A DNA stretch of 16,300 bases, taken from positions 1 to 16,300 of the forward strand of contig JAYENX010000018.1 in the NCBI GenBank assembly GCA_034722435.1, read 5' to 3'. Numbering within the stretch: the first letter of the stretch is position 1; each line of letters begins with the position of its first letter. The position numbers were made by a program, and so were the translations under genes. A model generated the notes under the pieces. The model worked only from the letters and a program-made list of their open reading frames with translations. It made no database searches and had not been told where the DNA came from. This DNA comes from Nanobdellota archaeon (GTDB taxonomy: Archaea; Nanobdellota; Nanobdellia; Woesearchaeales; JAHWHD01). Positions 128 through 9,575 of the stretch are shown here, one piece after another.

Positions 128-157
128 TTCTTCTATAAAGAGAAAAAGAGTGTGAAA

Positions 158-1111
158 ATGAAAAACTTAGAAATTGCTAAAATATTCTATGAAATGGCTG
201 ACATTTTAGATATGAAGAATGTTGATTGGAAGCCTGCAGCTTACAGGAAAGCTGCTCGTTCTTTGGAACTTATGTCGAAAGATGTTGAATTAGTTGTTAA
301 GAAAGGTTTGAAAGAGGTTGAGAAGATACCTGGAGTTGGGGAGGGTATTGGAGAGAAAATAATTGAGTATTGTAATACTGGGAAAATTAAGGAATATGAA
401 AAATTGAAGAAAAAGGTTCCTAAGAGTGTGGATGTTTTGATGAAAGTTCCTGGGATGGGGCTGAAGAAAGTTAAGGTTTTGTATAATGAACTCAATATAT
501 CAACATTGAAGCAGCTTGAGGTTGCTGCTAAGAAAGGTAAAATTTCTAAATTATCTGGTTTTGGAAAGAAGTCAGAAGAAGATATTCTTAGAGGGTTGGA
601 ATTGTTAAAGCTGAGTAAAGGAAGAGTATTGTTAAGTTTGATCTTACCTGTTGCCGAAAAGATTAAGCAAAAGTTAAAATCTTTGAAAGAGGTTAGTAAG
701 GTTGAGATTGCCGGGTCTATCAGGCGTATGAAAAAGACTGTAAAAGATATTGATATTTTAGTTGTTTCGAAGAAGCCTCGACAGGTAATGGATTATTTTT
801 GTGCAATGTCGGATGTGAAGGTTGTATTAACAAAAGGTAAAACTAAGTCAAATGTCGTGCTACGTTCTGGGATACAAGTAGATTTAAGAGTTGTTGAATC
901 TAAGTCGTGGGGTGCAGCTTTGCATTATTTTACTGGTCCCAAGGATCATAATATTAAGTTAAGGCAGATAGCTATCAATAAAGGGTATAAATTGAACGAG
1001 TATGGTTTGTTTTCTAGAAAGACTGGTAAGTTTATCGTCGGGAAGACTGAGAAAGAGATTTATGTTAAGTTAGGGTTAAAGTATATTCGTCCTGAGAAGC
1101 GGTTTGCATAA
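158..1111 (+). CDS. polX: DNA polymerase X family, core only (no PHP domain)
   Basis: N-terminal lyase domain (KPAAYRKAA), HhH motifs IPGVGEGIGEKI and VPGMGLKKV, GSIRR, catalytic DIDIL and QVDLRVV, HYFTGPKDHN, LNEYGLF, ending at YIRPEKR. ATG 158 preferred over GTG 152. Confidence 0.95.
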   Translation: MKNLEIAKIFYEMADILDMKNVDWKPAAYRKAARSLELMSKDVELVVKKGLKEVEKIPGVGEGIGEKIIEYCNTGKIKEYEKLKKKVPKSVDVLMKVPGMGLKKVKVLYNELNISTLKQLEVAAKKGKISKLSGFGKKSEEDILRGLELLKLSKGRVLLSLILPVAEKIKQKLKSLKEVSKVEIAGSIRRMKKTVKDIDILVVSKKPRQVMDYFCAMSDVKVVLTKGKTKSNVVLRSGIQVDLRVVESKSWGAALHYFTGPKDHNIKLRQIAINKGYKLNEYGLFSRKTGKFIVGKTEKEIYVKLGLKYIRPEKRFA

Positions 1112-3992: not shown

Positions 3993-5684
3993 ATGAAATT
4001 CAAAAAGTTAGTTGAATATTTAGAAGATTTAGAAAAGGTAAGTAGCGGTAACGCTATAAGAGCTATTCTTGCAGATCTTTTTAAGAAAACTAATAAGAAA
4101 GAGATTGATAAAGTTGTTTATATGATTCTTGGAAGGATTGCTCCGGAATATTCTAGTACTGTCATCGGAATGGCTGATAAGAGGGTTATCAAAGCACTTG
4201 CAATGGCTGTTAATAAAGATGAGGCAGTTGTTAAAAAGATAAATAAAAAGACTGGGGATGTTGGTTTGAGTGCGTATCAAGTTGTTAAAGGTAAAGGTGG
4301 CACATTAACTGTTAATGATGTATTTAATGAACTTAATAAGATTGCTCGCGTTTCTGGTACCGGTTCGCAAGGTATTAAATTAAGACGTTTAGCGGGGTTG
4401 ATTGTTAAAAGTTCAAATAAAGAATCAAAGTATATTGTAAGGGTTGTTCTGGGTACTTTACGTTTAGGTGTTGCTACTATGTCTGTCTTGGACGGTCTTA
4501 GTATTGCTTTCACGGGAAGTAAAGGTGCGCGGGAAACTATTGAATATGCGTATAATCTTTGCACTGATTCAGGGTTTGTAGCGAAAGTTCTTGCGACTAA
4601 AGGTGTAAAGGTTTTGAAGAAAGTGGGTGTCAAGGTTGGTTCTCCAATTAAAATGATGCTTTGTCAACGAATTAAATCTTTAAATGAGTTAGAACGAAAT
4701 ATTAAAGGTAAGATGGTGGTTGAGGAGAAGTATGATGGAGAAAGGTTACAGATACATTTTGATGGTAAAAATGTGAAAATTTTTTCTCGAAGGTTGGATG
4801 ATATAACTAAACAGTTTCCTGACGTGGTCAGGGTAGTGAAAAAGCAGTTAAAGGGACTAAATTTTATAGTGGAGGCTGAAGTGGTTGCGTGTAAAAAAGG
4901 GGTATTACAACCTTTCCAGTTATTGATGAGGCGAAGGCGTAAGTATGATGTTGAAAAATATGTTAATCAGATACCTGTGTGCGTTTTTCTTTTTGATTTA
5001 TTATATCTGAATAATAGGACTTATATCAATAAAAAGTATACTGAAAGACGAAAAGCTTTAGAACGGATAACGAAAGAGTCTGTAAATCTTAAATTGGCTT
5101 TACAGGTACAAACTGATAATCTTGACATGGTTACTAAATTTTTTAATAAATCTTTGAAACGGTATTGTGAAGGTATAATTATCAAGTCAATGGCTGAAGA
5201 TTCTGTCTATAGGCCTGGTGCAAGGGGAAAGCTCTGGATTAAATGGAAAAAGGATTATGTTAAAGGTTTGATTGATACTGTTGATGTTGTAGTGGTAGGA
5301 GCTTTTTTTGGAAAAGGTAGAAGGAAAGGTAAATACGGTGCATTGTTATGTGCAATATATAATTTTAAATTGGATAAGTTTGAAACTATAACTAAGCTGG
5401 GGACAGGGTTCACTGATAAAGTTCTTGCTGAGATTCCTGGAAAGTTTTCTAAGTATGTAGTGAAATCAAAACCTAAAAATTTGAGTAGTAAAATGAAAGC
5501 GGACGTATGGTTTAAGCCTGAGGTTGTTGTTGAAATAGTTGGTGCAGAATTAACTAAAAGTCTTTTGCATACTGCTGGAGCGGGTTATGCTTTACGTTTT
5601 CCACGTTTTATTAAGTGGAGACTTGATAAAGGTCCAAAGGATACTACTTCATTAAAAGAAATTAAAAAGTTGATTAAAAATTAA
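3993..5684 (+). CDS. lig: ATP-dependent DNA ligase, archaeal type (DBD + adenylation + OB domains)
   Basis: 563 aa with all motifs intact: I EEKYDGER, Ia FSRR, III VEAEVV, IIIa LFDLLY, IV CEGIIIK, V WIKWKKDY, VI LRFPRFIKWRLDK. Confidence 0.97.
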   Translation: MKFKKLVEYLEDLEKVSSGNAIRAILADLFKKTNKKEIDKVVYMILGRIAPEYSSTVIGMADKRVIKALAMAVNKDEAVVKKINKKTGDVGLSAYQVVKGKGGTLTVNDVFNELNKIARVSGTGSQGIKLRRLAGLIVKSSNKESKYIVRVVLGTLRLGVATMSVLDGLSIAFTGSKGARETIEYAYNLCTDSGFVAKVLATKGVKVLKKVGVKVGSPIKMMLCQRIKSLNELERNIKGKMVVEEKYDGERLQIHFDGKNVKIFSRRLDDITKQFPDVVRVVKKQLKGLNFIVEAEVVACKKGVLQPFQLLMRRRRKYDVEKYVNQIPVCVFLFDLLYLNNRTYINKKYTERRKALERITKESVNLKLALQVQTDNLDMVTKFFNKSLKRYCEGIIIKSMAEDSVYRPGARGKLWIKWKKDYVKGLIDTVDVVVVGAFFGKGRRKGKYGALLCAIYNFKLDKFETITKLGTGFTDKVLAEIPGKFSKYVVKSKPKNLSSKMKADVWFKPEVVVEIVGAELTKSLLHTAGAGYALRFPRFIKWRLDKGPKDTTSLKEIKKLIKN

Positions 5685-5686
5685 GT

Positions 5687-6679
5687 TTATTTTTTTTCAA
5701 AAAAATAGAAGCCTGATTCTTTTGCAATTTTTTGGTTTGTAGCCATAAAGTTTGGAACAATATCTTTTTTAAATAATATTTTTCCGTCTTCAATAAAAAA
5801 GTAAGTGTCAGGAGAAACAGTGCCGTTTTTATCTTTCATTTCAAAAACATCTAAAGAGTTTCCCCAGCCATAGATCGTATGAGACGCGACTTCAGTAATG
5901 TTAAGCGATTGACAATCTTTTCTTACTGTAAGATCTGCGTCTTCTTTTTTGTCAGAGAATTTTATCTTTACATCTTGTTTAATTTTTATATTCGTAGCAT
6001 GGGAAAAGATTCCTTTACTTATATTTTGGTTATCACCATTTTTAATTTTAAATTCAATAAAGAAACGTTGTAAGGTCTTAAGAGCGAATTCGTCGGCGTC
6101 TTGGGTGTTGTTGGTGCCGCATTCAATAACAAATGAAGGTATATCTTTTGTTTGTTCTATCATTGCACCTAAAGGGATGTCGAGTTCGAATATGTATGGT
6201 ACGAACTTTTGTGCAATTTCTGAACTTTTTGAATCGACGGTCATGCAATGTGGTGGAGTATTTTGTGCGGTAAATGAATGCAGGTCAAGAACTGCTATTA
6301 ATGGAAGAGTTTTGAAGAAATCAAGAAGTTCTCTAGAAGTTAGTTCGAGTTCGGTTTGAGGATTATTGACCCATGTTCGATTAAAGTTTTGTTTTCCCGG
6401 GATAAGTCTATTTGAGAAATATGGTTCGATTTTTGCAGATGCTACATTTCCAATAAAAAAGTAGACGTCTATAGGGTATTGTTGTTCAGAGTTTATCTCT
6501 TTGAGTATTGCTCTGAAACCTGAAGGTTCATTGCCGTGGATAAGGGAAGATATAAGAACTGCTTTTGAACTGTCTTTGCCTTTTACTTTGAAAATGCTGG
6601 GTTTTTCTAATTGAAACAGTGCTTCAATTTCTGTAAGGCCTTTAATCTTTTCAATATCTTCAAATAAATCGTATTTCAT
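5687..6679 (-). CDS. Succinylglutamate desuccinylase/aspartoacylase (M14-like Zn hydrolase) family protein
   Basis: Zn motif IHGNE (HxxE), NFNRTW, LDLHS (third ligand) and IECG (catalytic Glu). Confidence 0.85.
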   Translation of the reverse strand: MKYDLFEDIEKIKGLTEIEALFQLEKPSIFKVKGKDSSKAVLISSLIHGNEPSGFRAILKEINSEQQYPIDVYFFIGNVASAKIEPYFSNRLIPGKQNFNRTWVNNPQTELELTSRELLDFFKTLPLIAVLDLHSFTAQNTPPHCMTVDSKSSEIAQKFVPYIFELDIPLGAMIEQTKDIPSFVIECGTNNTQDADEFALKTLQRFFIEFKIKNGDNQNISKGIFSHATNIKIKQDVKIKFSDKKEDADLTVRKDCQSLNITEVASHTIYGWGNSLDVFEMKDKNGTVSPDTYFFIEDGKILFKKDIVPNFMATNQKIAKESGFYFFEKK

Positions 6680-6741: not shown

Positions 6742-6904
6742 TCTCTCGTTCGCCTGCTCGAATAGTGAGTGAAATAATTTTAAATAATCTCGCATCAATA
6801 CTGTCTTACTCGCACTGTGTTCGAGCAATGCTCAGTAATATTATATATTGCCGACCATTACAAATAGCACCTTGGCTCACTGGCCAGTATAGGCGAGACT
6901 TTTT
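6742..6904. ncRNA. Candidate structured intergenic RNA/element, family unknown, strand unresolved
   Basis: Richer in G+C than the flanking intergenic DNA. Complementary segments: TCGCCT 6750-55/AGGCGA 6891-96; TGCTCGAA 6755-62/TTCGAGCA 6820-27; GAGTGA 6767-72/TTACTC 6806-11; a GTAATAT/ATATTGC hairpin; palindrome ACTGGCCAGT 6879-88. Confidence 0.4.
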
Positions 6905-6920
6905 ATTAAACCTAATAAAC

Positions 6921-6944
6921 CAAAACATTTATATTATCTTTTTC
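6921..6944. promoter_or_regulatory. Possible bidirectional TATA region (ligase-like gene on +, structured element on -)
   Basis: Plus strand CAAAAC-A-TTTATATT (6928-6935); minus strand GAAAAAG-A-TAATATAA (6936-6929). SD GAGGTG at 6968-6973 before ATG 6977. Confidence 0.45.
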
Positions 6945-6976
6945 TTATTATTCTTAATAAAAAAATAGAGGTGTGT

Positions 6977-7561
6977 ATGAAATTTATAAAACCTATGTTG
7001 GCATCACGGGGAAATGTTTCTGATCTGGAAAGGAAAAGATATATTTTTGAACCGATGCATGACGGTGTCAGGGTTATAGTTTACAAGTATAAAAGTAGTC
7101 TGAAGATATTTGATTCTGTGGGGAAGAATATAACTAGATTGTTTCCTGAATTATTAAGTCTAAGTAAATATGTTGATGTAAAAGAGTGTGTTTTGGATTG
7201 TGAGATTGTTATTTATAGTAAAGGTAGGCCGGATTTTCAAAAGCTTAAGGAAAGGTTCTTGTTGAAAAGGAAGGAGATAGCTAAGATTTCTAAAGATATT
7301 CCTGCAGTTTTAGTGGTCAAAGATATTTTATATAAAAATGGTAAGAATCTGAGAAATCTTTCATTAATGAAACGTAAAGAAGTTTTAGAGAATACTGTTG
7401 CAGAGACAAATCTTTCTGAAGTAGTGTTTTATTCTGATCACGGGAAAAAGTTGTGGAAGCAAATGTTGGAGAAAGGGTTTAGAGGAGTTATTGCGAAGTA
7501 TAAATCTGGTAAATATGTTTCAGGTAAAACAGTTTCCAGCTGGTTGTGTGTAGGATTATGA
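6977..7561 (+). CDS. Stand-alone ATP-dependent ligase adenylation domain (LigD/LigC-like), predicted catalytically inactive
   Basis: 194 aa: IKPMLA, FEPMHDGVR (motif I, K to M), LDCEIV (III), DFQKL, VKDILY (IIIa, F to K), KRKEVL, FRGVIAK (IV, E to R), SWLCVGL* (V, lysines lost). No OB domain. SD GAGGTG supports ATG 6977. Confidence 0.85.
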   Translation: MKFIKPMLASRGNVSDLERKRYIFEPMHDGVRVIVYKYKSSLKIFDSVGKNITRLFPELLSLSKYVDVKECVLDCEIVIYSKGRPDFQKLKERFLLKRKEIAKISKDIPAVLVVKDILYKNGKNLRNLSLMKRKEVLENTVAETNLSEVVFYSDHGKKLWKQMLEKGFRGVIAKYKSGKYVSGKTVSSWLCVGL

Positions 7562-8565: not shown

Positions 8566-8892
8566 TTATTTTTTAGAAAATTCTTCTGCGCATTTATCAG
8601 AACAGAACCTGTACATTTCGCCGTCAATTTCTTTTTCGATAATGTTTTCTTCAAGAATCTTGCTACATGTATCGCATTTAGCTAGTTGACCTTTACCTTC
8701 GGCGCCTTGCATGAAACCTTCTTCTTCAGCTGAGATTTCTCCATCTTCAACAAGGTTTTCGCGTCCTTCTTCTGTATAAACGTCTTCGTTTTTTTCGCCA
8801 GTCTCCATATCTTCTTTAATTTGTTCTTCAGTTTTATCTTCGGTGAACTGTTCTGGAGCTCTGTGTTGATCATCTAATTTTTCATTTGACAT
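8566..8892 (-). CDS. Small acidic protein with C-terminal TRASH/YHS-like metal-binding domain
   Basis: CDTC-x19-FCSDKC at the C-terminus; Glu/Asp-rich N-terminal part (DVYTEEGRENLVEDGEISAEEEGFMQG). Start trimmed to ATG 8892 with GAGG upstream. Confidence 0.8.
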   Translation of the reverse strand: MSNEKLDDQHRAPEQFTEDKTEEQIKEDMETGEKNEDVYTEEGRENLVEDGEISAEEEGFMQGAEGKGQLAKCDTCSKILEENIIEKEIDGEMYRFCSDKCAEEFSKK

Positions 8893-9130
8893 TTTTTGTT
8901 CCCTCGTTAGCTTTAATTTCAAGTGGATCTGCTGTAGGTGCTGTAGTTGGTGTTGCAGATTCCATCCTTGATGCCCATGCTTTAACTAATATCTCTCCAT
9001 ATGCTCTTCTATACTTAGTGGAATCTTTTAGTCTAGTCATTTCTGCTTCTTTAGAATCTAAATAGGTAAAATCTTCTGAATGTATATGGCCTGAGCCATG
9101 GAATCTTGAATCATAATGTTCGTCTGCCAT
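8882..9130 (-). CDS. Hypothetical protein (82 aa, His-rich N-terminus)
   Basis: ATG 9130 lies 22 nt after a TATA-like CATATAAA (9160-9153). The stop overlaps the next gene's start by 11 nt, and the ORF fills otherwise empty space. Confidence 0.65.
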   Translation of the reverse strand: MADEHYDSRFHGSGHIHSEDFTYLDSKEAEMTRLKDSTKYRRAYGEILVKAWASRMESATPTTAPTADPLEIKANEGTKNVK

Positions 9131-9227: not shown

Positions 9228-9575
9228 ATGGTAAAAGTACATACTAGGACAAAGAGAAAGTTTGGAAGAGGTAAAGGTACGAGTTTTGGGTTTAAGTTTA
9301 AAGTTACTAATCTAGTTAAAAAGAACAGACCAAAGACTTTTGCAACCGAAGAAGGAGCTAATAAGTATGCTGCTGAGAAAGGTATTAAAAATTATTCTTT
9401 GAAAAAGGTTAAGAAAGATAAGAGATTTCAAGTTGTTGAGACAGTGGCAAAGAAAACAGTTGCGAAAGCTGCTACAAAAGTAGTTGAGAAGCCTGTAGCG
9501 AAACCTGTTGAAAAACTAGCTGAGAAACCTGTTGCAGTAGAGAAAAAACCTGTTGCGCCAGTAGAGAAAGCTTAA
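9228..9575 (+). CDS. Highly basic small protein with Lys/Val/Ala/Glu/Pro low-complexity tail; putative nucleic-acid-binding
   Basis: VHTRTKRK...KKNRPKTFATEEGANKYAAEKGIKNY core followed by a KPVA/KPVE-repeat tail; consensus-like TATA upstream. Confidence 0.8.
   Translation: MVKVHTRTKRKFGRGKGTSFGFKFKVTNLVKKNRPKTFATEEGANKYAAEKGIKNYSLKKVKKDKRFQVVETVAKKTVAKAATKVVEKPVAKPVEKLAEKPVAVEKKPVAPVEKA
9486..9572 (+). repeat. Imperfect coding repeats (KPV x4)
   Basis: AAACCTGTTG at 9501, 9525 and 9546, plus AAGCCTGTAG near 9489; encodes EKPVAKPVEKLAEKPVAVEKKPVAPVEK. Confidence 0.7.

Follow-up and report, generated by a model that had tools for sequence, protein, structure and literature searches.

A natural ligase adenylation domain with substituted catalytic residues and no OB domain, probably maintained by selection in Woesearchaeota

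The window analyzed here is the whole 16,300-nt stretch of contig JAYENX010000018.1, from a Nanobdellota archaeon of the order Woesearchaeales. On its + strand, an ORF at 6977–7561 (stop codon included) runs without interruption and encodes a product of 194 aa. The ORF, the Pfam match and the structure model identify this product as a stand-alone adenylation (NTase) domain, which is called the pseudo-ligase below. Based on homology to the orthologs, the ATG at 6977 is preferred as the start codon over the GTG at 6971. A Shine-Dalgarno-like GAGGTG, read from the sequence, is located 3 nt ahead of this ATG (6968–6973, +). Both the unbroken ORF and the ribosome binding site agree with the preliminary description of this locus. 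The sequence TTTATATT at 6928-6935 (+) is a candidate TATA-like element by sequence reading only. The GC content of the gene is at the level of the native background.

The intergenic region 5' of the pseudo-ligase contains a relatively G+C-rich stretch (6742–6904), whose + strand folds better than its shuffled controls, at -42.2 kcal/mol (0 of 200 shuffles; z -2.84, compared with -1.34 for the minus strand). Neither an Rfam family nor a tRNA matches the stretch, and it has no counterpart 5' of the ortholog on contig L004; Rfam and tRNA scans of the whole window also yielded no match. A 67-aa ORF at 6765–6968 overlaps the folding stretch. It is treated as spurious, because it has no Pfam match and no counterpart at the orthologous loci.

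Upstream of the pseudo-ligase lies lig (3993–5684, +), a canonical three-domain ATP-dependent DNA ligase composed of DBD, NTase and OB domains. Its Pfam domains and canonical motifs agree with the preliminary description, in which the upstream ligase has all of the catalytic residues. An AstE/AspA-like gene on the opposite strand (5687–6679, -) occupies a variable slot between the two. Downstream, the pseudo-ligase is followed by two small membrane genes (+) and by a gene for an acidic TRASH/zf-FCS protein (8566–8922, -); in each of the contexts compared, this gene is convergent with the pseudo-ligase. The TRASH/zf-FCS protein is 118 aa long, with a net charge of -17 and a C-terminal Cys motif. 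A family X polymerase of 319 aa (PolX; HhH, palm and thumb) is encoded at 152–1111 (+), on the strand that carries lig and 2.9 kb upstream of that gene; no PHP domain match was found in it. Further downstream, a 115-aa ORF at 9228–9575 (+) consists of 24% Lys and has a net charge of +23. It has no match in Pfam, PADLOC or PHROGs, and its product may be a small protein that binds nucleic acid or associates with the ribosome. A defence or phage context was rejected: PADLOC returned only a sub-threshold match, and PHROGs only a generic ligase family.

The host genome is 1.3 Mb in size and 94.5% complete. It contains three PF01068 genes, which are the pseudo-ligase and two canonical three-domain ligases. 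The two three-domain ligases, one at 3993–5684 in the window and the other at G000:C23:40165-41909 (L001:763-2505), are 33% identical to each other. Genomes of the same genus and the same family likewise show two three-domain ligase matches. Only two PF04679 (OB domain) matches are present in the genome, both within the full-length ligases. A split ligase with its OB domain in trans is thereby rejected: the genome has no stand-alone PF04679, and the genes downstream of the pseudo-ligase encode membrane proteins. A Ku/NHEJ partner is rejected as well, since Ku (PF02735) has no match in the 94.5% complete genome.

Pfam finds one domain in the pseudo-ligase, PF01068 (ATP-dependent DNA ligase adenylation), at residues 6–190 with 96.5 bits against a cut-off of 26.2 bits (E 2e-27). 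The PF04679 OB domain has no Pfam match in the protein. The pseudo-ligase is a member of PF01068 and of the covalent nucleotidyltransferase superfamily. NCBIfam ligase models match it in the adenylation part only, and every equivalog is far under its cut-off. The best matches are models of the LigD/NHEJ type, with scores of 100.8 for TIGR02779 (cut-off 227.75) and 73.9 for TIGR02776 (cut-off 373.2). With both scores below the equivalog level and no Ku match in the genome, the protein falls outside the LigD/NHEJ ligase class. An AlphaFold2 model based on a 130-sequence alignment has a pLDDT of 97.5 and a pTM of 0.92. The top Foldseek matches of this model are NTase domains of archaeal ligases at TM 0.90–0.92, and LigD comes next. 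The AlphaFold/Foldseek comparison proposed in the preliminary description thus returns a ligase NTase fold.

The ligase domain of Mycobacterium tuberculosis LigD (1vs0), aligned with HMMER, was the reference for motif reading. The alignment confirms the replacements K to M in motif I, F to K in motif IIIa, E to R in motif IV, and K-x-K to C-V-G in motif V. Motif I is E-G-K-W-D-G in 1vs0 and E-P-M-H-D-G in the pseudo-ligase; motif IV is E-G-V-I-A-K in 1vs0 and R-G-V-I-A-K in the pseudo-ligase. By codon reading and alignment, Met27 (ATG; 7055–7057) is at the position of the adenylated Lys of active ligases, Lys115 (AAA; 7319–7321) replaces the adenine-stacking Phe, Arg169 (AGA; 7481–7483) replaces the metal-site Glu, and Cys-Val-Gly (7547–7555) replaces the Lys-x-Lys of motif V. 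By alignment, motif Ia corresponds to Ser47-Val48 (7115–7120), where 90% of active relatives have an Arg, and Thr185 (7529–7531) replaces an Arg conserved in 95% of active relatives. All of these positions are on the + strand. The stop codon comes 1 residue past Cys-Val-Gly and 3 residues past the motif V position, which leaves no OB domain.

The motif positions were tabulated on the 150 closest 50%-identity cluster representatives, and 116 of them carry the full canonical set. The aromatic residue of motif IIIa, the Glu of motif IV, the Lys-x-Lys of motif V and the Arg of motif Ia are each 90–100% conserved in the 116 active relatives. Eight positions conserved in at least 80% of the canonical relatives are lost in the pseudo-ligase clade: K27, R47 (motif Ia), G75, F115, E169, R185, K191 and K193. 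Nineteen conserved scaffold positions are kept, including E25, G30, R32, D74, R93, D116, R133, G170, K174 and Y180. The balance of eight losses against 19 retained positions indicates a concentration of losses in the active site that greatly exceeds what chance would give. The codons, the 1vs0 alignment and the 116 relatives therefore agree with what was described before, the replacement of motifs I, Ia, IIIa, IV and V in a protein with a preserved scaffold and no OB domain. The changes had also been called multi-nucleotide and active-site-focused. The focus on the active site stands, and the multi-nucleotide part fails for motif I, because the ATG is only 1 nucleotide away from the AAG (Lys) codon of the closest ortholog. 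The Met27 codon is known from one assembly only.

The roles of these residues in ligation are described in PMC6698739. The Lys of motif I is the adenylation site, and the aromatic residue of motif IIIa stacks on the adenine. Motifs I, III and IV supply the acidic side chains that hold the catalytic metal. Contacts to the alpha-phosphate and the 5'-phosphate come from the lysines of motif V, and the pyrophosphate leaving group is oriented by motif VI, which belongs to the OB domain. The Lys of motif IV, which is Lys174 here, contacts N1 of the adenine. From these roles and the residues lost, we infer that canonical ligation is impossible for the pseudo-ligase, which would form no ligase-AMP and seal no nick. 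It is almost certainly not a functional ATP-dependent DNA ligase.

Close homologs are found in related lineages. A word-indexed search detected P0002 (71% identical) and P0003 (64%), and an exhaustive search of representatives added P0006 (58%) and P0009 (43%, 194 aa). P0002 is encoded on L004 and L005, which are contigs from different SRA runs, and its true start gives a protein of 194 aa. P0006 is the gene on JAHWHD010000033.1 of Candidatus Woesearchaeota archaeon FT1_799 (L026), and is identical to the copy in an unpublished genome of the same genus (G001); for this gene, the public L026 record was used throughout. The orthologs on L004/L005, P0003, the L026 gene and P0009 on the JGI contig L140 are all exactly 194 aa. 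The family is small, and intact ORFs of the same length are present in its five lineages, with identity down to 43%. The nucleotide alignment of the window, L004 and L026 genes extends over 585 nt with 0 gaps.

In a tree from a quick IQ-TREE search only (LG+C20), the window protein, L004, P0003, L026 and P0009 form one clade with an SH-aLRT of 97. The clade is nested in the two-domain ligases of ~300 aa, and the neighbouring three-domain ligases, compared by their NTase domains, are placed far away. This position indicates descent from a small LigD-LIG-like ligase, not duplication of the neighbouring lig, and the identity of 29% to lig agrees with it. A copy of the NTase domain of lig is ruled out by the same identity and the separate clade.

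Comparison of the five members might shed light on the order of the losses. Motif I has M, K, R, N and D, and motif IIIa has K, K, K, T and S. Motif IV is R in four members and N in the fifth; position 185 is T in four and E in the fifth. The motif Ia Arg is absent in all five, K-x-K of motif V is seen in none of the five, and the C-terminal end is at the same place in all five. The conserved hallmarks of the clade are the loss of the OB domain, Arg (Asn in one member) in place of the motif IV Glu, and the absence of Arg185, of the Arg of motif Ia and of the lysines of motif V. The residues 122–145 are nearly invariant inside the clade. The motif I codons are ATG in the window, AAG in L004 and AAC in L026, each change being one step from AAG. 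The closest ortholog, encoded at L004:626-1210, is 71% identical, was recovered from two independent samples and retains the Lys. The preliminary description had asked whether the loss of the motif I Lys is itself conserved under purifying selection; the selection is found, the conserved loss of the Lys is not. The Lys loss in the window appears to be a lineage-specific, single-nucleotide change in a protein that was probably dead before it. In the simplest reading of the sequences, the adenylated Lys began to drift only after the protein had lost its OB domain and its other catalytic residues.

Substitutions were compared by the Nei-Gojobori method. Between the window and L004, pN is 0.18 and pS is 0.71 (dN/dS 0.10); between the window and L026, 0.27 and 0.73 (dN/dS 0.13); and between L004 and L026, 0.26 and 0.67 (dN/dS 0.19). 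For the adjacent lig between the window and L026, pN is 0.18 and pS is 0.74 (dN/dS 0.06). The dN/dS values are approximate because dS is saturated, and the raw pN/pS of 0.26–0.39 for the pseudo-ligase is the conservative figure, compared with 0.24 for the adjacent lig. The identity between the window and L026 is 58% for the pseudo-ligase and 75% for lig, so the pseudo-ligase evolves faster. A recent pseudogene would be expected to have orthologs that keep the Lys and a dN/dS near 1. One ortholog does keep the Lys, but dN/dS is not near 1, and so the finding stands. The conservation of the protein and a pN well below pS rule out a decaying pseudogene or a sequencing error. The preliminary description, which saw neither error nor random decay but a maintained ligase-fold protein without catalytic residues, is supported in this by the length of 194 aa shared by five lineages, the low pN relative to pS, and the focused losses. 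These comparisons argue for a pseudo-enzyme maintained by purifying selection on an intact ORF.

The gene order around the orthologs is partly shared. In L026, there is 1 nt between the end of lig and the start of the pseudo-ligase, which is followed by the membrane pair and then the TRASH gene; the slot between lig and the pseudo-ligase is empty. In L140, the order is lig (+; 60% identical to the window lig), an M20 peptidase gene (-), the pseudo-ligase (+) and the TRASH gene (-). In L004, an M20 gene (-) homologous to that of L140 is located upstream, and the C-terminus of the TRASH gene is directly downstream. The P0003 contig has a convergent zf-FCS gene downstream. The pseudo-ligase is located downstream of a three-domain lig in all three contexts that reach far enough (window, L026 and L140; lig identity 60–75%). 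The two are separated by an opposite-strand gene in the window, in L140, and probably in L004. Of the active two-domain relatives retrieved together with flanks of 5 kb, none adjoins a three-domain lig. The synteny of lig and the pseudo-ligase in this narrow clade may be plain inherited gene order.

At the syntenic locus in an unpublished genome from a sister genus of the same family (G002, 76% complete), lig is followed by an unrelated ORF of 88 aa, and then by the membrane pair and the TRASH gene. The pseudo-ligase is absent from the whole assembly at this completeness, and the unrelated ORF at the locus indicates that it is dispensable there. The lig of G002 is 75% identical to the window lig, as close as that of L026, while the lig of L140 is more distant. 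Loss of the pseudo-ligase gene in G002 is therefore most likely. The TRASH gene is present in 39 of 61 genomes of the order, usually not near lig. Functional coupling of the pseudo-ligase to this acidic neighbour is rejected: the TRASH gene is widespread and is also present without the pseudo-ligase, so the adjacency is probably inherited gene order.

Among known systems, the two-domain LigD-LIG-like ligases (TIGR02779; 1VS0 and 6NHX; the ~300-aa "NHEJ DNA ligases" of Woesearchaeota, Patescibacteria and Dependentiae) are the closest relatives of the pseudo-ligase, based on 41–45% identity and the tree. The NTase fold and the scaffold residues are alike, whereas the pseudo-ligase has no OB domain, substitutions in five motifs, sub-cut-off scores and no Ku match in its genome. 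The archaeal three-domain replicative ligase, represented by the neighbouring lig and by 2CFM and 9DFA, shares the NTase fold, gives the best Foldseek matches at TM 0.9, and is the neighbour in three lineages. However, it belongs to a separate clade at 29% identity, and the pseudo-ligase lacks its DBD, OB domain and catalytic residues. The motif I change is the same as in the laboratory Lys-to-Met ligase domain of LigD (6NHX and 6NHZ). Laboratory dead ligases are single-site mutants of complete enzymes, whereas the pseudo-ligase is natural, truncated, substituted at many sites and apparently kept by selection. Full-length but catalytically inactive Lig4/Dnl4 has structural roles (PMC11754673 and PMC3694833), a precedent for non-catalytic work by a ligase fold. 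Literature searches found no paper on a natural OB-less, catalytically dead ligase domain.

What the protein does can be considered on this basis. It is somewhat probable that the pseudo-ligase is a selection-kept pseudo-enzyme, an OB-less NTase domain of LigD-LIG-like origin, which works by binding, most likely to nucleic acid, in the replication/repair setting of Lig. A small two-domain LigD-LIG-like ligase in the ancestor of one Woesearchaeota lineage would have lost its OB domain. The residues for all three ligation steps would have been lost next, with the compact fold retained. The remaining domain would function by binding, and its likeliest partner would be nucleic acid (nicks or ends), beside the three-domain Lig in replication or repair.

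Net charges in the clade range from +12 to +22, whereas NTase domains from active relatives have a median of +6. Per 100 residues, the charge is +9.8 for the pseudo-ligase, +10.1 for Lig and +11.3 for PolX, and -1.5 to +3 for the metabolic enzymes of the window. Nucleic-acid binding is favoured because this charge density equals that of Lig and PolX, and the position beside lig adds a little. Against the charge argument, high Lys content is common in AT-rich genomes. The motif Ia Arg, the motif V lysines and Arg185, which contact DNA or the nucleotide in active ligases, are lost, so canonical nick binding by the pseudo-ligase is doubtful.

The main rival is a protein-binding adaptor or regulator, which would dock on PCNA or on Lig, where the OB or the DNA-binding domain could be the site, and modulate ligation as a dead paralog does with an active enzyme, without binding nucleic acid. 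Three lineages have the pseudo-ligase next to lig, with almost no gap between the two genes in L026; active relatives have no such linkage, and the canonical DNA- and nucleotide-contact residues are gone. The almost invariant residues 122–145 would suit an adaptor, as would the structural roles of inactive Lig4 (PMC11754673 and PMC3694833). However, the pseudo-ligase comes from another ligase family than its neighbour, with 29% identity and a separate clade. No PIP-box-like motif was seen on reading the sequence, and opposite-strand genes interrupt the pair in most contexts. On balance, an adaptor of this kind is rather unlikely.

A lesser rival is a residual or altered enzyme, which would still bind an adenine nucleotide and perform partial or non-canonical chemistry on 5'-adenylated DNA ends or with another nucleophile. 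In work on the Chlorella virus ligase, truncated or Lys-mutant ligases reportedly still seal pre-adenylated nicks, which counts in favour of such activity. Asp29, Arg32, Glu76, Asp74, Asp116 and the motif IV Lys174 are retained, and one ortholog keeps the motif I Lys. The engineered Lys-to-Met ligase domain of LigD was crystallised with ATP (6nhx and 6nhz), so Met alone does not abolish nucleotide binding. It is because of the retained R32, E76 and K174 and of these crystals that residual activity is kept as a rival. Eight catalytic positions have nevertheless been lost together, among them the Phe that stacks on the adenine, the Glu of the metal site and the two lysines of motif V, and Glu76 is replaced by Trp in P0009. 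The motif I position drifts freely among M, K, R, N and D, which indicates no selection for a nucleophile there. The OB domain with motif VI is absent both in cis and in trans. Residual nucleotide-dependent activity is thus quite improbable.

The reading of the gene as functionless, either a recently inactivated fragment or an assembly artefact, could draw on the Met codon one nucleotide from Lys in a single assembly, the absence from the sister genus and the faster evolution than lig, but it is largely refuted, and very improbable, given the intact equal-length ORFs in five lineages, the low pN, the truncation point and lost residues shared by independent samples, and the native GC content.

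Other small ligases of the same family also seem to be decaying. P0156 (L142:4938-5528) and P0010 (L141:726-1301) represent a second OB-less lineage, located downstream of a PALP enzyme gene. In P0156, the Lys of motif I, the Glu of motif IV and the K-x-K are retained, Val takes the place of the motif III Glu, and the protein ends just past motif V. P0010 has Glu in place of the motif I Lys and Lys in place of the motif IV Glu. Membership of the two in the pseudo-ligase clade is rejected: the tree places P0010 elsewhere, and the context with the upstream PALP enzyme differs. They are therefore treated as an apparently independent lineage. Judged from their residues, P0156 and P0010 look like earlier stages of the same decay pathway.

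The motif I Lys is missing in ~12 of the 155 closest sequences. Homologs of ~300–340 aa with an OB-like C-terminal region and substitutions at motifs I, IV and/or V are encoded at L033:5001-6002 and L034:3189-4133, both from Woesearchaeota. Likewise substituted are the full-length two-domain homologs P0013, P0031, P0033, P0083, P0084, P0104, P0111, P0126 and P0147. Dead small ligases seem to be common in metagenomes. The sequences without the motif I Lys, together with the second OB-less lineage, indicate that the phenomenon is recurrent. It can be speculated, quite tentatively, that two-domain ligases repeatedly yield lasting OB-less pseudo-enzymes, that the one in Woesearchaeota has become a non-catalytic cofactor of the replicative Lig (a sensor of nicks or ends, or a regulator), and that P0156 and P0010, as a second, independent lineage, are part-way through such a decay.

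Annotation pipelines will give the pseudo-ligase the name "ATP-dependent DNA ligase", and counts of repair capacity in DPANN genomes will be wrong as a result. The clade can be viewed as a natural experiment in the death of a ligase, in which the OB domain and the contacts to the metal, DNA and phosphates would have gone first, and the adenylated Lys would then have been free to drift. If the binding function is confirmed, no ligase-derived pseudo-enzyme would have been described in archaea before the pseudo-ligase, which would also be a candidate accessory factor for the archaeal Lig.
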